From a virus (Duplodnaviria > Heunggongvirae > Uroviricota > Caudoviricetes): a DNA stretch of 44,578 bases. The notes beneath the pieces are model-generated. The model had not been told where the DNA came from. It saw only the letters and a program-made list of their open reading frames with translations, and made no database searches. The stretch covers positions 1 to 44,578 of the IMG/VR virus record IMGVR_UViG_2728369181_000006; one strand, 5' to 3'. Of the stretch, positions 1 through 44,578 are shown one piece after another (the first letter of the stretch is position 1; every line of letters starts with the position of its first letter). A program made the translations under genes and the position numbers.

Positions 1-1131
1 CTAAGCCGCGTGCTGCGATTCAGGGTTTACAGGCTCTCCGTGGGCTAACACTGCCAGCCCGGCAGCTTTAATATTACGTGCCGCGTTAATGTCGCGATCA
101 TGGTCTGCGCCGCATTCAGGGCAGTGCCATTTACGAACATTAAGAGGCATTTTTTGCATGGTGAAACCGCAGCAACTACAGCATTTTGAGGACGGTAAAT
201 ACTGGTCAATGGCGACCACTGACCGCCCGGCCCATTTGCCTTTGTACTGGAGCTGGCGAACAAGTTCGCTCCAGCCTGCGTCAGCTATTGCTTTAGACAG
301 CTTCGGGTTGCGGATCATGTTTTTCACCTTGAGGGATTCGACGCAAACAACTTGGTTTTCGTTAATCAGTTTGCGGGACAACTTGTGCAGATTGTCCATC
401 CGGCAATCGGCGATTTTCGCGTGGAGTCGGGCGACCTTTAAGCGGGCTTTAATACGGTTTCTTGAGCCTTTTTGCTTCCTGCTTAAACGTCGCTGTAGCA
501 GCGTTAATCGCTTCGCATATTTAGCGGTGTGGCGGGGATTGTCGGTTTTGAATCCGGTATCGGTGACGAATAAATCTTTTAAGCCCACATCAATGCCGAC
601 CGTTTTAGCGGTAACAGGCATTGATACAGGTTCAAACTCACACAGGCAGGAAACAAAGTACCTGCCAGCGCTATCTCTGGAAATGGTAACGGTTGACGGC
701 GCAGATGGTAATTCTCGACTCCAGCGAACATCCAGCGGCGACTTGCTCTTTGCTATATACAACTCGCCGTCACGGTGTTTAAACGCGCTGGCAGTGAACT
801 CAGCCACCTGTTTGTGCCGTTTGCTTTTGAAAGCCGGATATGCAGCTCGTCCGGCAAAGAAGTTAGCAAAGGCGGCTTGTTGGTGGCGCAACGACTGCTG
901 GAGGGGAACGCAGGAAACATCATTCAGCCATATGTATTCAGGCTCTTTTTTGAGCGCCGTAAGGCGAGCGTTGGCCTGTAGATAACCGATCTTTTCTTTT
1001 CGCTCGTAGTACGCATCGGTACGCCAACGAAGGATGGAATTGTAGACGAAGCGCACACAGCCAAACGTCTGAGCTAAAAGCTCAGCCTGCTCAGTTGTCG
1101 GGTAAAACCGGTATTTATATGCGCGTTTCAT
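1..1131 (-). CDS. tnpB: IS200/IS605-family TnpB (OrfB) RNA-guided nuclease/transposase accessory protein, 376 aa
   Basis: Full-length minus-strand ORF with ATG at 1131 and stop at 1-3; N-terminus MKRAYKYRFYPT and C-terminal zinc-finger region CCGFTMQ...HCPECGADHDRDINAARNI are typical of TnpB. No tnpA in window. Confidence 0.85.
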   Translation of the reverse strand: MKRAYKYRFYPTTEQAELLAQTFGCVRFVYNSILRWRTDAYYERKEKIGYLQANARLTALKKEPEYIWLNDVSCVPLQQSLRHQQAAFANFFAGRAAYPAFKSKRHKQVAEFTASAFKHRDGELYIAKSKSPLDVRWSRELPSAPSTVTISRDSAGRYFVSCLCEFEPVSMPVTAKTVGIDVGLKDLFVTDTGFKTDNPRHTAKYAKRLTLLQRRLSRKQKGSRNRIKARLKVARLHAKIADCRMDNLHKLSRKLINENQVVCVESLKVKNMIRNPKLSKAIADAGWSELVRQLQYKGKWAGRSVVAIDQYLPSSKCCSCCGFTMQKMPLNVRKWHCPECGADHDRDINAARNIKAAGLAVLAHGEPVNPESQHAA

Positions 1132-1239: not shown

Positions 1240-1716
1240 ATGAAACTCATCAGTAACGATCTGCGCGATGGCGATAAGCTGCCGCATCGTCATGTCTTTA
1301 ACGGCATGGGTTACGATGGCGATAATATTTCACCGCATCTGGCGTGGGATGATGTTCCTGTGGGAACGAAAAGTTTTGTTGTCACCTGCTATGACCCGGA
1401 TGCGCCAACCGGCTCCGGCTGGTGGCACTGGGTAGTTGTTAATTTACCCGCTGATACCCGCGTATTACCGCAAGGGTTTGGCTCTGGTCTGGTAGCTATG
1501 CCAGACGGCGTTTTGCAGACGCGTACCGACTTTGGTAAAACCGGGTACGATGGCGCAGCGCCGCCGAAAGGCGAAACCCATCGCTACATTTTTACCGTTC
1601 ACGCGCTGGATGTAGAACGTATTGATGTCGATGAAGGTGCCAGCGGCGCGATGGTCGGGTTTAACGTTCATTTTCACTCTCTGGCGAGTGCCTCGATTAC
1701 TGCGATGTTTAGTTAA
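1240..1716 (+). CDS. ybhB: PEBP-family (YbhB/YbcL-type) kinase-inhibitor-like protein, 158 aa; host gene
   Basis: ATG ORF; PEBP motifs (DPDAPTGSGWWHW, GYDGAAPPKGETHRY); lies immediately outside the lambda att core, as ybhB does at the K-12 lambda attachment site. Confidence 0.8.
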   Translation: MKLISNDLRDGDKLPHRHVFNGMGYDGDNISPHLAWDDVPVGTKSFVVTCYDPDAPTGSGWWHWVVVNLPADTRVLPQGFGSGLVAMPDGVLQTRTDFGKTGYDGAAPPKGETHRYIFTVHALDVERIDVDEGASGAMVGFNVHFHSLASASITAMFS

Positions 1717-2501: not shown

Positions 2502-4160
2502 TTACCAACTCAAAAGAATATTTACATCACCTACGCTAATAGGATTTGGTGTGACATTTTGAAATGTTACCCTGACGATATTATCGGAAACAGCAATAGC
2601 ATCTGAAATTATACCTATTGGGAGATCATTCAACACTGTCATTTGTAGAGGAACTTCATTAGATATGATATATCCGGTCAATGTTCTTTGCATTGAGAAC
2701 CTGCCATTTGCTGAAATCGTGCCAACATTCAACGTTGATTTTACTTTCTTTCCTGAATATGTAACACCATTCAAATCTATATGTGAGTTATTTATTAATG
2801 TCAACGCAGAATATCCTGAAAAATCACTATTAGCCCCGGCCTGCCTTACTACAGAGAATTTATCAGCTCGTATTGCAAAGTCACCAGTTGCTTCCGATGC
2901 ATTAATGTTATTGGTAACAACAACACCTCCATCAACACAGTTAATAGCATATGTTGCATTTCCTTTTATCGTTATGTTTCTTAAACTTAAATAAGATGCA
3001 AACTGGCATGTGGCAAAAGCAATTGCTCCATCTGATAGATACCCATCTGAAAATTCAACAGACGAAGAATACCTTGATCCTATACACGATTGAGTTCTCG
3101 GTTTAAAAATAGATCCGCCTTTAATATAACAATCCGCCGCATGCTCAACCTTAAGAGAGTCTTCCCCTGAATTGTAAGAAGTGAATTCTGTGCCCCTCAC
3201 GCTTGCACTGTACACACATTCAAGGGAAATATTAGCATTTGATATATGAACCCCATTAACCCCAAATTGAGATCCAGAGCCAGAAACAAGAACTCCACAA
3301 ACAGAGCCTCCATTTACAATCAAATTGTTTGCATCCCAAACTACGCAACTACCACATTGTGAATCAGGGTAGTATCCACCTCCGATAATGAGTCCGTAAT
3401 CACCATCTGTTTCAACAGCAACATTTTTTATGCTGTATATATTTGATCTAAATTGTATTCCTTTTGTTGTTTTTATTATGGAATTTATTGGTTTTGCCAC
3501 AACCCCGTTAACCGGACCTGAAATTATACCATTGTGACTCATATCCAATGTTAATACATTTCCATCCTTGGAAATTATCATCGCTCCACATGAAATGTCT
3601 CTCCTGCCAGAAAGTATACAATATTTACCAACATGAAAATTATCTGCATTCTGAACAGAAACTTTAAAAATACCAGTCAACACATCATAAGAAACATCAT
3701 ATACATTAACAGGACTATAATCCACACCCAATATATTCAGAGGAATATTATCAAACTCATCATAATGTGAATAACCATCAGGAATGTGAATATACTGCCC
3801 GTATTCTATCTGTGATCTAAGCTGATCGGGATCGTACTTCAGCACATTAGGAAAATAGAACTGCAGAGCGCCGTACGCATCATAAACAGCCATAGAATGG
3901 CCTTGCACAGTTACGAATTTGGCAATCTGTCCGTTATATACCGGATAACCAGCAGCGTTAATGATGATTGGTTGAGAAACAGGAACGTGAGAGCCGTCTT
4001 CGTTCTCTACATAAACCGGAATCTGGTTTTCAGGGTTTACCGGGTCAGTGTCAATTTTACCGATATAAATTTTACCATTGGCTACGGCTTTAAAAGAACG
4101 CGCCATAGTGAAGAGTTGCGAAGGCATACTCACTACAACATTAGCTGTAATGTCTGTCAT
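2502..4160 (-). CDS. Tailspike protein (P22 gp9-like N-terminal head-binding domain, divergent receptor-binding domain), 552 aa
   Basis: N-terminus [11 protein letters not shown]...[34 protein letters not shown] closely matches the P22 gp9 head-binding domain; the remainder is divergent and Gly/Ser/Asn-rich. Confidence 0.85.
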
Positions 4161-4338: not shown

Positions 4339-5217
4339 TCAGTAGTTATGTACTGAAGGAGGCAATTCTTTATTCTTAAGTCTCATCCATGCGGAAAGAT
4401 TCGTTGGTCCGTCTGGCTCATTGATATCAACATCTCGTGTGTGGTTGATTAAAACGTCTCTCGCCATTCCGATAACATACGAGAACTCATGACCGTAGTC
4501 GTAGCATCTGCCGGAATAGTTCGATTGAATTTGTTTTAATGCCGGATACAGTTCGCGGAATAATGCCTGTGAGCGGTTGGCATAATCCCATAACCATACA
4601 AGGCTGTTTGCTTCTTTTGCAGAAAGCTCGTTGGTTTTCTTCTCTTGTTTGCCGATGAATTCGCCTTCAAGCACTACCCTGTGGATGTACTCTACGGCTT
4701 GCGGGATTTGTTCAATTGAAAGTTCATCAATGCTGTCAATACCAAAACGCTGATGAACCATATTGTATGCATCGTCATAGCGAAGTCCTTTCTTTCCTAC
4801 CAGCATGTTTACTGCATCGCGTAGCGGTGTTCTTTCCTCAACAGTGGTTTTCTTTCCTTTTACATACTCGCCATGTTTGCGAATTGAAGGCAGAACTTCT
4901 GCTGTTACCCACTTGCGGAATTTGTGCGGGACCGAACCTTTATTGACTGCATCGCGGCAGCGCAGAACCAATGTATACATACCTGATTCGCTCACAATGC
5001 TTAGATTCTGCTCACCACCAAGGGTGTAACTTAAAGTTACTCCCTTTTCATCGTCATCAAGTGCAGTAAGCGCCTTGCGTGAGTTAGTCAGGGTTAAAGC
5101 ATCACAAACATCTTTTGCTACAAACCACGGCTCACCGCACTTGTTGATGACGCGGATTTCACTGTCGCCGAATTTGAAGATGGTGAAATCGTTTTGTGCC
5201 TTTGCTATACTTTTCAT
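4339..5217 (-). CDS. ant: Antirepressor Ant (Bro-N/AntA N-terminal domain)
   Basis: Bro-N-like N-terminus ([11 protein letters not shown]...[14 protein letters not shown]); position directly downstream of arc as in P22 immI. Start placed at ATG 5217 with AGGAAA RBS; the ORF-track start at 5283 is GTG. Confidence 0.75.
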
Positions 5218-5218
5218 G

Positions 5219-5290
5219 TCAATATTTCCTAATCCGATTTGTTGATACCGAAGCCCTGACTGTTCCCGCAGTTGGGGCTTCACTGTTTTG
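5219..5290 (+). ncRNA. sar: Candidate Sar-like antisense RNA covering the ant ribosome-binding region
   Basis: Plus-strand hairpin (gaagccc...gggcttc, about 5250-5282) followed by a T-rich tract, about 70 nt downstream of a weak promoter-like -10 tatact at 5206-5211. Geometry matches P22 sar, which is antisense to the ant RBS. Confidence 0.3.
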
Positions 5291-5449
5291 ATTTCTTTGC
5301 CGCATCAAGCATCACTTCTGAAAACGTGCGCTTGCCACTGAATACTCTTTCTCTTCTCAATTTTTCGTTCGTGCCAAATGATTCGCCATGAACAAAATTT
5401 GGTCTTAAAATGGTAATCGCAATCTCTTTGACTACTGCATCCAAGCGAA

Positions 5450-5602
5450 TCACACCGTTACCCCCTCTCTCTTCAGGCTGTCTATCAGGCGCTTGATAAC
5501 CTCTGAGTTAAACGACCTGCACTCTTCCTTTGCCCTGCTACCGATAGCATCCTTTAACGACTGCGGCATCCTTACCAAAATCTTACTTATTTCTTTCTCC
5601 AT
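5450..5602 (-). CDS. arc: Arc-like ribbon-helix-helix repressor, 50 aa
   Basis: Sequence MEKEISKILVRMPQSLKDAIGSRAKEECRSFNSEVIKRLIDSLKREG resembles P22 Arc (GRSVNSEIYQRV...); GGAGGG RBS; divergent from mnt. Confidence 0.75.
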   Translation of the reverse strand: MEKEISKILVRMPQSLKDAIGSRAKEECRSFNSEVIKRLIDSLKREGVTV

Positions 5603-5716
5603 GTTACCCTCCACACAAACAACTCTTTTCGAATACAAAAGATAGCAAAGTGAGTATATCTAGTCAAAATTTTTTTGCATACACTTTGATATCAAATTGA
5701 ATACCAAAGGTGTGAT
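5603..5716. promoter_or_regulatory. Divergent Pant/Pmnt-type promoter-operator region of immI
   Basis: 114-bp AT-rich intergenic region between divergent arc and mnt with inverted repeats (caaagtg ... cactttg); exact operator boundaries not resolved. Confidence 0.5.
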
Positions 5717-5971
5717 ATGGCAAAAGGTGTGTCAATTTCTCCAACTACGGTAAGAATCCCTGAATCTTTACGCGAGGCTCTTGCTGTCAGAGCATCAAAA
5801 AATGGTCGCTCTGTTAACTCCGAGATCGTCATGATTTTGCAAGCCGCGATTGATGAAGAAAAATCACCAAGATCAATAGAAGGTTTTGCTCAACAAGAAT
5901 CTGAAAAATTTAGGGAGGCTCTTCTTAAGACTCTCAGCAGCATGTACGGAGAAGATAAAAAACCCACCTGA
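5717..5971 (+). CDS. mnt: Mnt-like ribbon-helix-helix repressor, 84 aa
   Basis: Arc/Mnt family motif NGRSVNSEIV; size and divergent arrangement with arc-ant as in P22 immI. Confidence 0.75.
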   Translation: MAKGVSISPTTVRIPESLREALAVRASKNGRSVNSEIVMILQAAIDEEKSPRSIEGFAQQESEKFREALLKTLSSMYGEDKKPT

Positions 5972-5985
5972 CGGTGGGTTTTATT
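5957..5985. terminator. Bidirectional rho-independent terminator
   Basis: Sequence aaaaaa cccacc tgac ggtggg ttttatt; serves convergent mnt (+) and the 140-aa gene (-). Confidence 0.65.
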
Positions 5986-6406
5986 AGTGCTTGTATAGCT
6001 TGAACTCCCTGTCGAGCCATAAGACATAAAAAGTGGCTCCTATCTTATAACCAACCATAGGTGCCTTAGAGCAAAATCTGAACGCAATGAAATCCACATC
6101 TTGAGTAACATGCTTAGGAATCGGAGCCTTTATCGCGTTTCTGGCAATTTTTTCCGTCCCAAGCCCGTGTTTATCAGATTTTCGTATCTCATCCCATGAC
6201 ATCTGACTTAACCTGAACAGCCTATCTGCAAATGCTGCCTTTTCATGCTTTTGGCAGCAATCTAGGCAATACCCCTTTTGTAGGTATCTAAGAGAAAATA
6301 CAGGCGGACTTTTGTCTACATCATGAGATTCGTGATGGATAGAGAGGCCAACAGTAGCAGAGCTCTCTTTATCCCTCTGTTTTATTCTTCCCTTAACTCT
6401 AGGCAT
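5984..6406 (-). CDS. Hypothetical 140-aa protein, candidate toxin partner of the Panacea-domain protein
   Basis: ATG 5 nt after the stop of the upstream Panacea-domain gene; basic protein with C-terminus ...GYKIGATFYVLWLDREFKLYKH loosely reminiscent of RelE/ParE-fold toxins. No confident family assignment. Confidence 0.45.
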   Translation of the reverse strand: MPRVKGRIKQRDKESSATVGLSIHHESHDVDKSPPVFSLRYLQKGYCLDCCQKHEKAAFADRLFRLSQMSWDEIRKSDKHGLGTEKIARNAIKAPIPKHVTQDVDFIAFRFCSKAPMVGYKIGATFYVLWLDREFKLYKH

Positions 6407-6411
6407 ACACG

Positions 6412-6861
6412 TCAGTTAATTAACGTTTTGAAAAAACCTTTCATAGAATCAAGTGTGATTTCTTGGCTAACCGCACCCTCAATGTAAGCATCTTTCCATG
6501 GCTGCTCTTCGTGAGTCATATTGCGCAGTTTCCAGGCAGAAAACTGACCATAAACTTTATACACCTCATCCAGCAATTCAATTTCATCTTCACTGAATTT
6601 TTTAGCGTCAAAGTTTTCTGGCGCAAGTAAAGCTCCGTTACCACAGTCCCTATATTTACGATACAATTCAGGAACTACTGGCCCATGCATCCAGGCTTCA
6701 ATTTTCTCATTAAATAGCGGCTTACCCAGAAGAACCAGAGAAAACCCTTGGGCATAATACGTCAACTTCTGAATTTTTAGGTTAGAGATAATGTCGCCAC
6801 TTTCTTCATCGCAATGCGCCAAGAAGTAGTCGGCGACATCAAAACAAGTGAGCATAAACAT
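6412..6861 (-). CDS. Panacea-domain (DUF4065, SocA/PanA-like) putative antitoxin, 149 aa
   Basis: Motif KIQKLTYYAQGFSLVLLGKPLF...EAWMHGPVVPELYRKY matches the DUF4065 signature as recalled; ATG start with GGAGGT RBS. Confidence 0.7.
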   Translation of the reverse strand: MFMLTCFDVADYFLAHCDEESGDIISNLKIQKLTYYAQGFSLVLLGKPLFNEKIEAWMHGPVVPELYRKYRDCGNGALLAPENFDAKKFSEDEIELLDEVYKVYGQFSAWKLRNMTHEEQPWKDAYIEGAVSQEITLDSMKGFFKTLIN

Positions 6862-7229
6862 ACCTCCATCTTGATAGCCGCAGCTATGTATACAACTGTG
6901 TCAAGTTGCATTTAATACCATAACAAAGCTGTCATCAATCCTTCAGAGGCTAACTTACAACCACTTTCTCGACACGTTTAAATCATTACATTTCACATTT
7001 ACTGCATTTTCGCCGAAGTTACCTATAAGGTAATGTCACATTTCCTGCAAGTTTCATGCAATGTTGAAAAGTGAGCTATTCACTTTTCTATGACACCAAA
7101 CACCAAAAATAGCACTTTTTGCTAAATCATTCGTCCAAGTTGTGGATGGTTTGTCGTTGACACGTTTTCACACACCACTCCACTAATAAAGTATCATCTG
7201 GTATCCTGAGCAAAACTAAGGAGGTTGGT

Positions 7230-7724
7230 GTGTCTGATTCTATGAGTTACGCTGTGCTAGTTGCCGCAACTCTATTTCTGGGGATAGGGTTGCAGATTGC
7301 GTGGTTCTTTTTTTCTAGTTTTATTAAACGCAAAAGAATTGAATCAAGGATATCTGAGATTTCTATTGCTATAGGGAAAAATGCTGAAAATCCAGAGAAT
7401 GATGCCTGCGCACTGAATTACCTTAAAGAAAAGTTTTCCCCTGAAAAATTTGAAAATAGAATTACTGATGCTCTTGGATTGGTAATATCAGTAATTCATA
7501 TGCCACTAAGTTTGCTGATAACAGTGTGGTACTTCGCCATGATCGCCGGAAGAATATTTGGTTTCATGAATATAGATCCTGTAGTTCTTTGGGTTCCAAT
7601 GATACTGCAATTGTTGTTAAGCTTTGCTATCTTTATTTTTTCTGTTTTTATAAAAATTGTCTTCGGAAGATACCCCGGAGAAGCGAAGGGATTTAATAAA
7701 GAATTCATAAAAACTATAAAATAA
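7230..7724 (+). CDS. Inner-membrane protein, putative superinfection-exclusion protein (SieA-like by position)
   Basis: GTG start 5 nt after AAGGAGG; three predicted hydrophobic helices; sits between the gp16-like gene and immI, where P22 carries sieA. Confidence 0.4.
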
Positions 7725-7746
7725 ATGCCGTCCTTGGCTTACAGTG

Positions 7747-9573
7747 CTACTGCCGGGTAGCTTCGTTAACTAAGAGCGGGCGCACGGCAGTAGCCGCCTG
7801 ATTTAGCGCTCTTTCATAAGCTGGCGTTCCAGCTTTAGTGTTTGCCAGACGTAAGAGCGCATTCCTTGCTGCTTTGGATTCATACAAGCGCATCATTGCA
7901 CCGAAACCAGCCTCAAGCCCCATTGATATGCCAAGAGTCGTAGTTGCGCCAATCGTCCTTATCCTGTTGGCTTGCGATTGCCCCGTCTGAGTTACTACAT
8001 TTGCGGTGTCTGATCTTGCTGTTTGCTGTAGAACTTCATGAAGAGCATCAAGTTCTTTCATGTGCTTTCCAGAAAAAATAGTGTTGTAAATTTCACCGCC
8101 TGACTGAGATTTCAGCTTATTAACTTCCGTGATGAACTTGGCTGGAGAGTCACCGGCCTTTTCCGCTATTTTGCTGACGTAAGCTGCACGCATAGCATCT
8201 TTCCCTTTATCATCCAATGCGCTCCAGATTCGTTTCACGTCAGATGGTTTTCTGCTTAATACAACAGTATTTATAAGTTCAGGACTGGCTTCACTGCTTG
8301 CCTTGTTGAGCTTGTTAGCAATGTTTTTATTAAGCACCTTATTATAAACGTTTGCATAATCGGAGTTTGCTTTAAGGTATTTTGCTGCGTCTGATGCACC
8401 GAGGTTTTTTGCAACTGCGTTACGAAGGTCTTTTGACATTGCATTCTCTACCATATTGGTAGCTGCTTTTGCCTGGTTGGGGAAGACCATAGCATCCCCC
8501 TGAACATTAGATCTAAATGCTGTTCTGTGCTGACGCAGGAGATCAAACGTAACATCCAAATCAGTTGCAGGGTTTGCTAATTCTTCACGTAGGTTACGCA
8601 AGGATGTAAGCAGGCTTTGATTGGCAGACGTCCCAAGCCGTTCCTGTCTTGCGATCGCTGTATTCAGAGCATTCATGGTATTTGTGGTATCAACTGCGGC
8701 ATTACCCATTTTATTGGTGACGTCATTGATAACAGCGCCAGCGGCATCCTTCCGTCCCCTTAACGTGGTGGTCAGAGATTTCACCACATCATCAGGGTTG
8801 TACTCACCAAAACGGTCAAAATAATTGCTTACCAGCTTACTACGCGTTGCATATTGCTCCGCTCGCTTTGAGCCTGTCCCGAGCAAAGCCCCCTCAGCAT
8901 CCTGAGTAAGTCCGCGAGTGAAAGCATTTTTCGGCGGGATAACATCAGATGTCATTGGTGTCACGCCCATCGATTCTGATGTGGCAATTTTCTTCGCCAC
9001 TTCTGGCGCAATATCACCTTTTATAGCCGTTATTCCACGCCCTATTCCCTTTGCTGCTGCGGAAAGAACACCCTGAGCGGCAAGGTTAACTCCGGCATTT
9101 TTAGCTGCATTTTGTGCGAAATCACCTTTCTGATTTGCGGCCTCTGCCAGTGATCCAATAGCCATGCTTCCTGCCGTTCCAACTCCTGGAACTAAATACC
9201 CGCCAATTGTTTCTCCAGCTTGAGCGTAAGGGTCTGTCGGTCGATCGACTGGACGATAGACATCATCCAATACTTTTGGCCCACCAAGCCCCTGACTGAT
9301 TGCATTAATCAGACTTGCGCCACCCTGCAATACGTCAAATGGTATGTTTACCAGACCACGACCAGCCTGTTCTGCAATTTGCCCTGCACTTTGACCACCA
9401 GTGAGCCAGTCAGTAGCTTTTCCCACCAGAGATTGTTCTTCTGGCTGCGATTGGTTTTGAGTGGATTGATCACCAGAAGACAGCATCTGAGCAATGCGAC
9501 GTGCTCCCTCAGTATCGCCGGCAGCATCAGCATTCCTTAACGCCGTCATCAACTGTTCACGACTATAGGCCAT
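7747..9573 (-). CDS. Ejection (injection) protein, P22 gp16-like, 608 aa
   Basis: Size and position after the gp20-like gene; Ala/Gly-rich; ATG start overlaps the upstream stop. Confidence 0.75.
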
Positions 9574-10859
9574 TACTGCCCTCCGAGATATTTGCTAATT
9601 AATTCGTCATCGGACAATTGCTGTTGAGGTTGGCTATCGCCATAACTTGAGGAAAGAAAACGTTTTGCCGCAGAGTTCAATGATTCACCCTTCTTAACAT
9701 CCATCCCCATGATGTTTCGGTTGCGATCAGATTGTCCTGGGCTGCCATTTGCACTCATCCACTCTGACCTAAACTCGTTGAACTTCGCGTTATTACTTTC
9801 CATTTTTGCCATACCCCTTAACCATCGAGCCATGACCATTGGATTATCCGTTTCGCTTGGAATGCCTTTCCTTGCAAACTCAATATCCTTATCTGATGCA
9901 GGGCCGGGAGGGAGAAGCTTTGTTGCCTGCGCATTGGCTAGTTGGTTGAATCTAATCCGCATATCTCGGAGGTAGTTATCTTGCCCCGTAAGCTTAGTGA
10001 ACATATTTTCAGCGTTACCGAACAAACCAGGAGTTGGCTTCTCCTTCTCAAGCGTGTCAGCAAGCGTTGTCATTGAATCGGCAGCATTACGACTAGCTGC
10101 CGCATCACCTGCTGATTTTTCTATAGCCTTTTCCATGTTCACGGATAGTTTTGGCGCAGCATTAATAAGTTCATCGGCCTTCTTTTGTGCCTGTTGTACT
10201 TCAAAACCGAATTTCTGCTTATCAAGTGCCAGTCTTTCTGCTGCAAGTCCGTGTCCAGTCATTGCTGACTGATAGGAAAGGTTTTGCCCTCTCGCCTGAA
10301 GTGCCTCGCCAGCCTGATTGCTACGGATTGTCTCATTAAGCTGATCGCGTTGATGCTGCACATCAAACTGTTTATCCATAGGCAGAGTGGCAAGGCGGCT
10401 AGCATTTAACAGGCTATTAAACCTGCCCGGATCCTGTTGATAAAGCTGCCATGCATCATCCTTACTCACACCCAGACTTAATAATGCTGCGCTGTTGCTA
10501 TTCAGAGCATTTGCAATTTCATTTGGATTTCCTGTAGATGCAGCAATTGATATTTTATTTAAAGCTGAATTAACAAATGCTGAATGCTCAGCACTCTGAA
10601 TACCTAACTCCTGTTGTATAGCCTGAGTAAACTCAGGGAATTTTCGACGCAGAGAAGCTATTTGTTCAGGAGGCGTTTCATTCATAGCTTTATAGAATTC
10701 CTGCTGTCTGGCATCCTGTCGAATAGCCCGCTGGTTATCTATTCCCTGCGCTATACCTTGCTGTGTCGTGGCAAAGGTTTGAGCTTCTTTCAATCCTTCC
10801 AGTCTGAAGTCAGGAACTAATGACATCAGATTTAATGGGCTGCCAATACTATAAGCCAT
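9573..10859 (-). CDS. Ejection protein, P22 gp20-like, 428 aa
   Basis: Synteny gp7-gp20-gp16; translationally coupled overlaps (ATGA/TAATG). Confidence 0.7.
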
Positions 10860-33735: not shown

Positions 33736-34077
33736 ATGACGGTAATCGTGTACGGAAAATCAACATTTGTAGGAAATGCCAAAACTCGCCGTCATGAGCG
33801 GCGCAGAAAGCTGGCTATCGAGCGTGATGCTATCTGTAACATCATTGATTCTATCTTCGGCACAGACAGTGAGGAACCTGTTCAGGAAGCCCCAAGAAAG
33901 CGTTTAAGCCTTTCTGAAAAAGCAATATCACTCGGAAGCCTTCGCTGCAAGAAGTCAAAGTCAGAAGAAGTCGAGCGTAAACAGAACCGTATTTACTACC
34001 GCAAGCCACGCAGTGAAATGGGTGTGACTTGTGTTGGTCGCCAGAAAATGAAATTAGGCAGCAAACCACTTATTTGA
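33736..34077 (+). CDS. N: Antiterminator N (P22 gene 24-type), 113 aa
   Basis: Arginine-rich motif GNAKTRRHERRRKLAIER at the N-terminus; C-terminus GVTCVGRQKMKLGSKPLI similar to lambda N; GAGGAA RBS; start at internal ATG 33736. Confidence 0.8.
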   Translation: MTVIVYGKSTFVGNAKTRRHERRRKLAIERDAICNIIDSIFGTDSEEPVQEAPRKRLSLSEKAISLGSLRCKKSKSEEVERKQNRIYYRKPRSEMGVTCVGRQKMKLGSKPLI

Positions 34078-34088
34078 GAGGAATTAAT

Positions 34089-34712
34089 ATGTCATCAATC
34101 CGCTTAACTACGAGAATGAAAGAGAAAATCGCTCGTAACGCTTTAATTAAGTCTGGGGTTTTCACTGAGCTTGAAGAAGTAACAAAGTTAAAGAACCAGC
34201 TTGCACTTGACGCCAGAGTTATTGCGTTTGGCGGTAAAAAGAAAACTGAGGAAGTGGATCAGTTATCATCCAAGTTGGTAGCTATAAGTGAAGAACTTGG
34301 AAAGATGGGATGTTCATTTTACTCATACGATTTTCGTTCTACTTCAATTTATCTGACTGTATCTGGCAGAAGGGTTGGATGGCATTCATATGAGAAAGAC
34401 GGCAACGGCGAAGATATATTTCTCCCTACTCCGATAAAAGATAAATGCATGTTTGACGCAGAGCACGAAATAACAAAAAGGTTTGATGAAATCTGCTCAT
34501 TACAACAAAAACTTGAAGCCAAGAAAAAGGATATCGAATCAAATGTATGGGCTGCTTTAAACTCAGTCACAACAGTTAAGCGACTTATTGAGGTTTGGCC
34601 TGAAAGCAAAGAGTTGCTACCAAAAGAAGCAGATAAAGCAAGTACAGCACTTCCTGCTTTACGGGTAGAAGATTTGAATAAGATGATTGGACTTCCTTCC
34701 GAGGCCGCATAG
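34089..34712 (+). CDS. Hypothetical early protein, 207 aa
   Basis: ATG 34089 with GAGAGGAA RBS directly after N; no recognisable family. Confidence 0.5.
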   Translation: MSSIRLTTRMKEKIARNALIKSGVFTELEEVTKLKNQLALDARVIAFGGKKKTEEVDQLSSKLVAISEELGKMGCSFYSYDFRSTSIYLTVSGRRVGWHSYEKDGNGEDIFLPTPIKDKCMFDAEHEITKRFDEICSLQQKLEAKKKDIESNVWAALNSVTTVKRLIEVWPESKELLPKEADKASTALPALRVEDLNKMIGLPSEAA

Positions 34713-41893: not shown

Positions 41894-42112
41894 ATGTACT
41901 TGACACTTCAGGAGTGGAACGCACGCCAGCGACGCCCAAGAAGCCTTGAAACAGTTCGTCGATGGGTACGCGAGTGCAGGATATTCCCACCACCGGTTAA
42001 GGACGGAAGAGAGTATTTGTTCCACGAATCAGCGGTAAAGGTTGACTTAAATCGACCAGTAACAGGTAGCCTTTTGAAGAGGATCAAAAATGGGAAGAAG
42101 GCGAAGTCATGA
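41894..42112 (+). CDS. xis: Excisionase Xis (lambda-type), 72 aa
   Basis: MYLTLQEWNARQRRPRSLETVRRWVRECRIFPPPVKDGREYLFHESAVKVDLNRP matches lambda Xis as recalled. Confidence 0.9.
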   Translation: MYLTLQEWNARQRRPRSLETVRRWVRECRIFPPPVKDGREYLFHESAVKVDLNRPVTGSLLKRIKNGKKAKS

Positions 42113-43160
42113 GCGCCGGGATTTACCCCCTAATCTTTATATAAGAAACAATGGATATTACTGCTACAGGGACCAAAGGACGGGTAAAGAGTTTGGATTA
42201 GGCCGAGACAGGAGGATAGCAATCACTGAAGCAATACAGGCCAACATTGAGTTATTTTCAGGACACAAACACAAGCCTCTGACAGCGAGAATCAACAGTG
42301 ATAATTCTGTTACGTTACATTCATGGCTTGATCGCTACGAAAAAATCCTCGCCAGCAGAGGAATCAAGCAGAAGACACTTATAAATTACATGAGCAAAAT
42401 TAAAGCAATAAGGAGGGGTCTGCCTGATGCTCCACTTGAAGACATCACCACAAAAGAAATTGCGGCAATGCTCAATGGATACATAGACGAGGGCAAGGCG
42501 GCGTCAGCCAAGTTAATCAGATCAACACTGAGCGATGCATTCCGAGAGGCAATAGCTGAAGGCCATATAACAATAAACCCGGTCGCTGCCACTCGCGCAG
42601 CAAAATCAGAGGTAAGGAGATCAAGACTTACGGCTGACGAATACCTGAAAATTTATCAAGCAGCAGAATCATCACCATGTTGGCTTAGACTTGCAATGGA
42701 ACTGGCTGTTGTTACCGGGCAGCGTGTTGGGGATTTATGCGAAATGAAGTGGTCTGATATCGTAGATGGCTATCTTTATGTCGAGCAAAGCAAAACCGGC
42801 GTAAAAATTGCCATCCCAACAACATTGCATGTTGATGCTCTTGGGATATCAATGAAGGAAACACTTGATAAATGCAAAGAGATTCTTGGCGGAGAAACCA
42901 TAATTGCATCTACTCGTCGTGAACCGCTTTCATCCGGCACAGTATCAAGGTATTTTATGCGCGCACGAAAAGCATCAGGTCTTTCCTTCGAAGGGGATCC
43001 GCCTACCTTTCACGAGTTGCGCAGTTTGTCTGCAAGACTCTATGAGAAGCAGATAAGCGATAAGTTTGCTCAACATCTTCTCGGGCATAAGTCGGACACC
43101 ATGGCATCACAGTATCGTGATGACAGAGGCAGGGAGTGGGACAAAATTGAAATCAAATAA
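42090..43160 (+). CDS. int: Integrase Int (lambda-type tyrosine recombinase), 356 aa
   Basis: MGRRRSHERRDLPPNLYIRNNGYYCYRD… matches lambda Int as recalled; catalytic R…HxxR…Y residues present; overlaps xis. Confidence 0.9.
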   Translation: MGRRRSHERRDLPPNLYIRNNGYYCYRDQRTGKEFGLGRDRRIAITEAIQANIELFSGHKHKPLTARINSDNSVTLHSWLDRYEKILASRGIKQKTLINYMSKIKAIRRGLPDAPLEDITTKEIAAMLNGYIDEGKAASAKLIRSTLSDAFREAIAEGHITINPVAATRAAKSEVRRSRLTADEYLKIYQAAESSPCWLRLAMELAVVTGQRVGDLCEMKWSDIVDGYLYVEQSKTGVKIAIPTTLHVDALGISMKETLDKCKEILGGETIIASTRREPLSSGTVSRYFMRARKASGLSFEGDPPTFHELRSLSARLYEKQISDKFAQHLLGHKSDTMASQYRDDRGREWDKIEIK

Positions 43161-43294: not shown

Positions 43295-44578
43295 GTGAAC
43301 ACATTTTCAGTTTCCCGTCTGGCGCTGGCATTGGCTTTTGGCGTGACGCTGACCGCCTGTAGCTCAACACCGCCCGATCAACGTCCTTCTGATCAAACCG
43401 CGCCTGGTACCTCTTCGCGCCCGATTCTGTCGGCAAAAGAAGCGCAGAATTTCGATGCTCAACACTATTTTGCATCCCTGACACCAGGTGCGGCAGCGTG
43501 GAATCCTTCCCCGATTACCCTGCCTGCGCAACCTGACTTTGTTGTCGGCCCGGCGGGTACTCAAGGTGTAACGCATACCACGATTCAGGCGGCGGTAGAT
43601 GCGGCAATTATCAAGCGTACCAACAAGCGCCAGTATATTGCCGTGATGCCTGGTGAGTATCAGGGAACGGTGTATGTCCCTGCCGCTCCGGGTGGAATTA
43701 CTCTGTACGGTACAGGTGAAAAACCGATTGATGTGAAGATTGGGCTTTCCCTTGATGGTGGCATGAGCCCTGCCGACTGGCGTCACGACGTCAACCCGCG
43801 CGGCAAATATATGCCAGGTAAACCGGCGTGGTATATGTACGATAGCTGCCAGAGTAAACGCAGCGACAGTATCGGTGTTCTCTGCTCTGCGGTCTTCTGG
43901 TCACAAAACAATGGCCTGCAACTGCAAAACCTGACCATCGAAAACACGCTGGGCGATAGCGTAGATGCGGGTAACCATCCGGCGGTGGCACTGCGTACTG
44001 ATGGCGACAAAGTGCAGATCAATAACGTCAACATTCTCGGTCGTCAGAACACCTTCTTTGTCACCAACAGCGGTGTGCAGAACCGTCTGGAAACGAATCG
44101 CCAGCCGCGTACGCTGGTGACCAACAGCTATATTGAAGGGGATGTGGATATCGTTTCTGGTCGCGGCGCAGTGGTGTTCGATAACACCGAATTCCGCGTG
44201 GTGAACTCCCGTACCCAGCAAGAAGCGTATGTGTTTGCACCGGCTACGCTGTCCAACATTTACTACGGTTTCCTCGCCGTAAACAGCCGTTTCAATGCTT
44301 CCGGTGATGGCGTGGCGCAACTGGGCCGCTCGCTGGATGTTGATGCCAATACCAACGGTCAGGTAGTGATCCGTGATAGCGCCATCAACGAAGGTTTTAA
44401 CACAGCCAAACCGTGGGCTGATGCGGTGATCTCTAATCGTCCGTTTGCGGGTAACACCGGCAGCGTTGATGATAACGACGAAGTACAGCGCAATCTGAAT
44501 GACACTAACTACAACCGCATGTGGGAATACAATAACCGCGGCGTGGGTAGCAAAGTGGTTGCAGAGGCGAAGAAGTAG
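43295..44578 (+). CDS. ybhC: Host lipoprotein YbhC (pectinesterase-family acyl-CoA thioesterase), 427 aa
   Basis: GTG start; lipoprotein signal LTAC; pectinesterase-like beta-helix region; K-12 neighbour of the lambda attachment site. Confidence 0.8.
   Translation: MNTFSVSRLALALAFGVTLTACSSTPPDQRPSDQTAPGTSSRPILSAKEAQNFDAQHYFASLTPGAAAWNPSPITLPAQPDFVVGPAGTQGVTHTTIQAAVDAAIIKRTNKRQYIAVMPGEYQGTVYVPAAPGGITLYGTGEKPIDVKIGLSLDGGMSPADWRHDVNPRGKYMPGKPAWYMYDSCQSKRSDSIGVLCSAVFWSQNNGLQLQNLTIENTLGDSVDAGNHPAVALRTDGDKVQINNVNILGRQNTFFVTNSGVQNRLETNRQPRTLVTNSYIEGDVDIVSGRGAVVFDNTEFRVVNSRTQQEAYVFAPATLSNIYYGFLAVNSRFNASGDGVAQLGRSLDVDANTNGQVVIRDSAINEGFNTAKPWADAVISNRPFAGNTGSVDDNDEVQRNLNDTNYNRMWEYNNRGVGSKVVAEAKK

Follow-up and report, generated by a model that had tools for sequence, protein, structure and literature searches.

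The gene at positions 7230 to 7724 of the window, a 44,578-nt stretch of viral DNA, is identified from its sequence as a sieA gene of type A, a superinfection exclusion gene of an already known kind, which supports the original prediction of a membrane protein that may block DNA entry of superinfecting phages. It belongs to a P22-like prophage of Escherichia coli, and we regard it as highly probable (about 0.9) that its product acts like SieA of phage P22. Homology, size, predicted topology, a conserved motif and genomic position, as far as sequence can tell, all correspond to type A SieA. The features on which this identification is based, together with those of the surrounding prophage, are listed in Table 1.

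The original prediction had put the protein forward as a SieA-type candidate to be compared with P22 SieA. In that comparison, 150 of 164 residues were identical (91%, gapless, E=7e-113), with the alignment beginning at residue 1, and the profile of PHROG 7745 ("superinfection exclusion SieA-like") matched residues 1-164 over all 164 of its positions (E=2e-107). At the DNA level, the gene was 94.9% identical to P22 sieA over 546 bp (window 7199-7744), ruling out a chance ORF at 7230-7724. A megablast search of phage records with positions 6862-7746 matched 47 records, at least 30 of which were P22 and its close relatives, with 94.9% identity and with the matched feature annotated as sieA. The gene has a G+C content of 35%, compared with 46% for the whole window. 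Its differences from P22 sieA comprise 14 non-synonymous and 11 synonymous changes, giving a dN/dS of 0.34 (Nei-Gojobori); the 14 replacements are mostly conservative and include K53E and Y60C, plus N153K within the motif window. Both the ratio and the conservative nature of the changes fit purifying selection on the gene.

Alleles of this kind are not new in E. coli. Of 5426 complete E. coli genomes, 35 had a type A sieA with an identity of at least 95%, mostly of 98-99%, and RefSeq alleles 98-99% identical in DNA are annotated as "superinfection exclusion protein A" (e.g. WP_106832615.1), a name that the NCBI PGAP pipeline already gives to near-identical alleles. The value of the gene as a discovery is small: it is closely orthologous to one of the classic genes for prophage exclusion, and type A had been described from P22-like prophages of E. 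coli in 2024. There is some value for annotation: the avian pathogenic strain BEN2908 has a SieA 100% identical to that of the window (WP_061335900.1), the identity including the Panacea module and the spacer, and this protein is still labelled "hypothetical protein" in RefSeq.

Table 1. Coordinates of sieA, its parts and upstream elements, and of neighbouring genes (positions in the window unless another locus is named)
Feature	Position	Strand	Remarks
IS605-family OrfB/TnpB gene	1-1131	-	
PEBP-family (ybhB-type) gene	1240-1716		
Tailspike gene	2502-4160		P22 head-binding domain
ant, antirepressor gene	4339-5283	-	Bro-N and P22_AR_C domains
arc-like gene	5450-5638	-	Arc-family
mnt-like gene	5717-5971	+	Arc/Mnt-fold repressor
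Partner protein gene	5984-6406	-	140 aa; phrog_8366; weak matches to MAG6450 family and PADLOC NsnC
SocA/Panacea-domain protein gene	6412-6861	-	149 aa; Pfam E=2.8e-24; partner gene 5 bp after
Nearly invariant non-coding segment	6985-7232	+	248 bp; upstream of sieA, ends with the GTG
Best promoter candidate, TTCACA-N19-TATCAT	7167-7197	+	relaxed scan; 10/12 matches; long spacer
Leader, Shine-Dalgarno sequence and GTG	7199-7232	+	34 bp; common to P22 sieA and prophages with other cargo
Shine-Dalgarno sequence AAGGAGGT	7218-7225	+	4 nt before GTG; strong
sieA (type A) CDS	7230-7724	+	164 aa; GTG start; from ORF listing, P22 identity and PHROG 7745
Hydrophobic segment 1	7251-7319	+	about aa 8-30; peak 2.13; followed by KRKR
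Hydrophobic segment 2	7470-7553	+	about aa 81-108; peak 2.17
Hydrophobic segment 3	7581-7667	+	about aa 118-146; peak 2.51
SieA motif FxRYPxEAxxFNK	7662-7700	+	aa 145-157; intact; read from translation
Gene 16 (ejection protein) homologue	7747-9573	-	608 aa; 77% to P22 gp16 over 561 aa; PHROG 770
Gene 20 (ejection protein) homologue	9573-10859	-	428 aa; 30% to P22 gp20 over 161 aa; PHROG 917
Lambda-type integrase gene	42090-43160		
Pectinesterase-like (ybhC-type) gene	43295-44578		beside integrase
129-aa cargo ORF	L003:5247-5636 (E. coli PA45B); L006:2236-2625 (phage Emek orf129)		same GTG

The prediction of a 164-aa protein with three hydrophobic helices agreed with both the ORF listing and a Kyte-Doolittle scan with a 19-residue window, which gave three hydrophobic segments with peaks of 2.1-2.5. 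The loop formed by residues 31-80 contains 10 K/R residues. Because KRKR follows the first segment and the C-terminus is rich in K/R, residues 31-80 and 147-164 are predicted by the positive-inside rule to be cytoplasmic, and the protein would thus have three transmembrane helices, with its N-terminus outside and both residues 31-80 and the C-terminal motif in the cytoplasm. The motif, located at residues 145-157 of P22 SieA, is common to all three SieA types and is likewise predicted to be cytoplasmic in the published work (Leavitt et al., mBio 2024, PMC10883804). Exposure to the periplasm would be limited to about 7 residues at the N-terminus and to the short loop joining helices 2 and 3 (109-118, about 10 residues); with so little of SieA in the periplasm, its contact with the DNA conduit of an incoming phage, if direct, would more likely take place within the bilayer or at the cytoplasmic face. 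The N-terminal extension characteristic of types B and C is absent from the window protein, which is therefore assigned to type A.

The element carrying the gene is recognizable as a P22-like prophage integrated into an E. coli chromosome at ybhB/ybhC, the flanking ybhB- and ybhC-type genes suggesting integration at the lambda attB region. The window also encodes a cI-like repressor and an N-like antiterminator, and its virion genes are about 96-97% like those of the E. coli phages IME10 and APC_JM3.2. The early-left region contains, immediately after the N-like antiterminator gene, a gene at 34029-34712 (+) for a 227-aa protein with a full-length match (E=5.5e-70) to Nmad5 (nucleotide modification associated domain 5). 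As predicted, sieA is on the strand opposite to the virion genes, the homologues of genes 16 and 20 being on the minus strand and sieA on the plus strand, and it lies between the gene 16 homologue and the mnt/arc/ant genes with the tailspike gene. Its predicted placement between the gp16-like gene and immI was right in that this is the position of sieA in P22, where the orientation relative to gene 16 is also the same; however, the gene is not directly beside immI, as the Panacea pair intervenes. This minus-strand two-gene operon (5984-6861), between sieA and immI, resembles a toxin-antitoxin pair of the PanA/PanT type.

The properties expected of the window protein follow from those published for P22 SieA. 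When P22 sieA was present in the chromosome as a single copy, together with 85 bp of upstream sequence, plating of P22 fell at least 10^7-fold, lysogenisation fell 10^5-fold and K+ efflux was abolished (Leavitt et al., mBio 2024, PMC10883804), and the block by P22 SieA is therefore at DNA injection. The same chromosomal gene had little or no effect on cell growth, and SieA-FLAG of P22 fractionated with the inner membrane only (PMC10883804). The P22-like phages L, MG40, MG178 and LP7 are excluded, while Det7, Felix-O1, ES18, 9NA and SP6 are not affected, and in E. coli SieA is active against CUS-3 but only weakly so against HK620 (PMC10883804). In E. coli, P22-like prophages are known to have sieA of either type A or type B at the gene 16-side position (PMC10883804). 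By homology with P22 SieA, the window protein would insert into the inner membrane via its three transmembrane helices; its gene would be expressed at a low level from the prophage, using its own promoter just upstream; and it would block DNA delivery by superinfecting P22-like phages, leaving unrelated phages unaffected. We infer both that this allele does the same as P22 SieA and where its promoter is located. A lysogen with this prophage would be expected to resist P22-like phages, for example those of the CUS-3 type, and this bears on the typing of E. coli with phages as well as on phage therapy.

A variant of this explanation, rather than a replacement for it, is that the protein is a genuine SieA whose range of targets among P22-like phages has shifted. 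Either the 14 amino acid differences from P22 SieA or the E. coli setting might cause such a shift. Constraint among type A alleles is not very strong, at a dN/dS of 0.34-0.55, exclusion is known to depend on the type of ejection proteins, HK620 being able to escape in part, and the ejection proteins of the resident prophage are themselves unusual, with a rare gp20 and a divergent gp16 C-terminus that has Thr at the P22 P546 escape site. However, type A SieA of P22 and type B SieA of HS1, although only 24% identical, were indistinguishable in specificity against five ejection-protein sets (PMC10883804), so that an allele 91% identical to that of P22 is unlikely to differ much, and we consider a shifted range to be rather improbable.

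Escape from SieA needs changes in the C-terminal parts of the ejection proteins, namely G532W and P546S in gp16 and T338I, T341I, A348T and G350D in gp20 (PMC10883804). In the window, the stretch of gp16 most divergent from P22, at about residues 533-565, spans the SieA-escape sites; G532 of P22 gp16 is kept as G531, and P546, the residue changed in P546S, corresponds to Thr545. The window gp20, of a type different from P22 gp20, is a rare sequence type, the closest sequenced phages being Emek and ST-35 (86% over the C-terminal 70%), and it falls outside the ejection-protein sets tested against SieA. Strain BEN2908 differs here from the window, with gp16 and gp20 of 612 and 469 aa compared with 608 and 428 aa. 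Among complete RefSeq E. coli genomes, none matched the whole sieA-16-20 stretch, the best being elppa4 with 97.6% identity over 85%.

The start of SieA is uncertain in the literature, with lengths of 162 or 164 aa given (PMC10883804). We found that two unrelated ORFs, in different prophages, open in frame at the same GTG, which supports the GTG at 7230 as the true start of sieA. The Shine-Dalgarno sequence AAGGAGGT is unchanged in P22 and in every related locus aligned. Homology with P22 begins at 7199, 31 nt 5' of the GTG, and homology with E. coli PA45B and phage Emek stops at 7232. A leader hairpin hiding the ribosome-binding site and the GTG, formed by pairing of ACACACCA (7170-7177) with TGGTGTGT (7226-7233), was considered and rejected, as the fold of 7165-7260 showed no stability beyond that of shuffled sequences (z=+0.44) and the 5' arm would fall upstream of the likely transcription start.

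The upstream spacer (6862-7229) was correctly described in the prediction as 368 bp long and AT-rich, with 38% G+C compared with 46% for the window. The TTGACA proposed there as a promoter element is indeed located at 7157-7162, but it could not be accepted as the -35 element of sieA, as no -10 hexamer with A2/T6 lies 15-20 bp downstream. A consensus promoter scan of 6800-7800, in which about 2.9 sites are expected by chance, gave no plus-strand sigma-70-type site in the spacer. The best candidate in a relaxed scan consists of TTCACA (7167-7172) and TATCAT (7192-7197), separated by a non-optimal 19-bp spacer. In P22, the annotated putative PsieA is TTGGTA-N19-TTTCAT and ends right before GGTATCCTG; TATCAT of the window ends two bases before GGTATCCTG, so that the candidate is equivalent to the putative P22 promoter in both position and N19 spacing. 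The P22 hexamers themselves are not conserved in the window, and by our own count the window candidate matches the consensus at 10 of 12 positions, compared with 8 of 12 for P22. Since the upstream sequence differs from that of P22, expression of sieA must depend on different upstream sequence, and TTCACA-N19-TATCAT is likely to be the sieA promoter. If weak, such a promoter would fit the low level at which sieA is reported to be transcribed in lysogens of P22.

These observations also bear on whether sieA might be intact but silent or decaying, recombination having replaced the P22 promoter region so that no exclusion is expressed. In favour of such a state are the loss of P22 homology 31 nt upstream of the GTG, the replacement of the hexamers annotated in P22 and the missing standard sigma-70 match in the spacer, but we consider it very unlikely, for the ORF is full length, with motif and Shine-Dalgarno sequence intact and with signs of purifying selection; 87 E. 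coli genomes keep the upstream segment at 96-100% identity, in every case directly in front of a cargo ORF that opens at this GTG; and the candidate TTCACA-N19-TATCAT, at the position of the putative P22 promoter, is closer to the consensus. The points that count against a sieA acting as in P22 are that the putative P22 PsieA is not kept, that the proteins differ at 14 positions, that the standard promoter scan was negative, that the spacer of the candidate is non-optimal, and that the protein is recognised by no NCBIfam or PADLOC model and is labelled hypothetical in BEN2908.

No SieA family model covering the protein was found in Pfam, NCBIfam or PADLOC, and no sequence relative was found in the PDB at E values up to 1. 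A partial match to Pfam DUF6161 (16.4 bits, compared with a gathering threshold of 27; E=0.0065) was treated as a chance match. That the protein is instead a membrane protein with another role (holin-like, an abortive-infection toxin or a transporter fragment), resembling SieA by position alone, might be argued from this sub-threshold match and from the lack of a curated Pfam, NCBIfam or PADLOC family, but is effectively refuted by the 91% identity to an experimentally characterised protein, the DUF6161 match being reproduced with neither P22 SieA nor HS1 SieA and chromosomal P22 sieA barely affecting growth (PMC10883804).

The identification as type A sieA can be placed against the known systems. 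P22 SieA (BK000583, DAA00996.1; 495-bp CDS) likewise has 164 aa, a three-helix hydropathy profile, the motif and the same Shine-Dalgarno sequence, leader and GTG; it differs from the window in its 14 substitutions, in its host, which is Salmonella rather than E. coli, and in the sequence upstream of -31, which is unrelated. A protein of prophage HS1 in E. coli HS (L008:2287-2925), taken from its position and homology to be the published type B SieA, is 28% identical to the window protein over 148 aa (E=7e-23) and keeps the motif. It is encoded beside gene 16 as in the window and its published exclusion phenotype is the same as that of P22 SieA, but it is extended at the N-terminus, where one more transmembrane segment is predicted. 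Beyond the SieA family, T4 Imm is a membrane-associated phage protein that blocks DNA entry by related phages. HK97 gp15, Lactococcus Sie2009 and Streptococcus Ltp are also membrane-associated and block DNA entry by related phages (PMC10883804). These four proteins are functional analogues, with a sequence relationship to SieA neither detected nor claimed, and their targets are long-tailed phages, with a tape-measure conduit, whereas SieA acts on P22-like podophages, with a conduit of gp7, gp20 and gp16.

The non-coding segment immediately upstream of sieA (6985-7232) is unusually conserved: 87 of 5426 E. coli genomes carry it at 96-100% identity, as do five phage records, two of Salmonella phage Emek and one each of phiv205-1, EC.P3 and E212. 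In contrast to this far better conserved spacer, the Panacea genes of Emek and phiv205-1 reach only about 83% identity to that of the window. The segment contains a 17-nt direct repeat, ATTTCACATTTaCTGCA, at 6990 and 7033, a perfect 9-bp hairpin, GAAAAGTGA-N5-TCACTTTTC, at 7066-7088 and, read directly from the sequence, a palindrome, TTACCT-ATA-AGGTAA, near 7021-7035. A non-coding RNA or small protein in the spacer was rejected as an explanation, as the conserved spacer gave no Rfam match at permissive thresholds and no ORF of at least 30 aa lies wholly inside it; the sole Rfam match in 5400-7800, sroH at 5960-5982, scored 18 bits compared with a cut-off of 80 and appears to be a chance terminator-like match. 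The segment probably carries divergent promoters and operators that serve the cargo gene on one side and the Panacea operon on the other, and its conservation may reflect either constraint or recent recombination.

In the window, as in BEN2908 and the Res13 strains, the leader with its Shine-Dalgarno sequence and GTG opens sieA; PA45B, Emek and about 34 E. coli genomes have the same leader and Shine-Dalgarno sequence in front of a non-homologous 129-aa ORF that begins at this GTG, and identity between the loci with sieA and those with the 129-aa cargo ends exactly after the GTG. The 129-aa protein has a signal-peptide-like N-terminus (MRQFLAAMFLFISFGATA/EC), belongs to phrog_2651 and is described in the Emek record as similar to Sf6 gene 38. 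This Sf6 gene 38-like protein may be an alternative periplasmic exclusion factor. It is conceivable, although we hold this only tentatively, that positions 6985-7232 constitute a portable moron "socket" for alternative exclusion cargos, comprising promoter, operators, leader, Shine-Dalgarno sequence and GTG and perhaps co-regulated with the divergent Panacea operon; if so, the 129-aa ORF would encode a periplasmic exclusion factor not yet characterised. The novel leads from this locus are limited to that possible socket with its alternative cargo and to the secreted 129-aa protein, likewise uncharacterised, found in place of sieA in many prophages, and the minor new points are the GTG shared by two cargos, the changed promoter region with a similar -35/N19/-10 arrangement, and the unusual conservation of the upstream segment.

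The left neighbours of sieA also differ between the two phages, being orf59a and an unannotated HExxH ORF in P22 and the putative Panacea toxin-antitoxin pair in the window. The unannotated ORF, located between orf59a and sieA at about 3157-3501 of BK000583 on the minus (late-gene) strand, encodes about 114-121 aa; its ATG abuts the sieA leader, and an HExxH motif (IAHECAH) was read from it by eye. The equivalent of this ORF in RefSeq E. coli FDAARGOS_1251 is annotated as a hypothetical protein.
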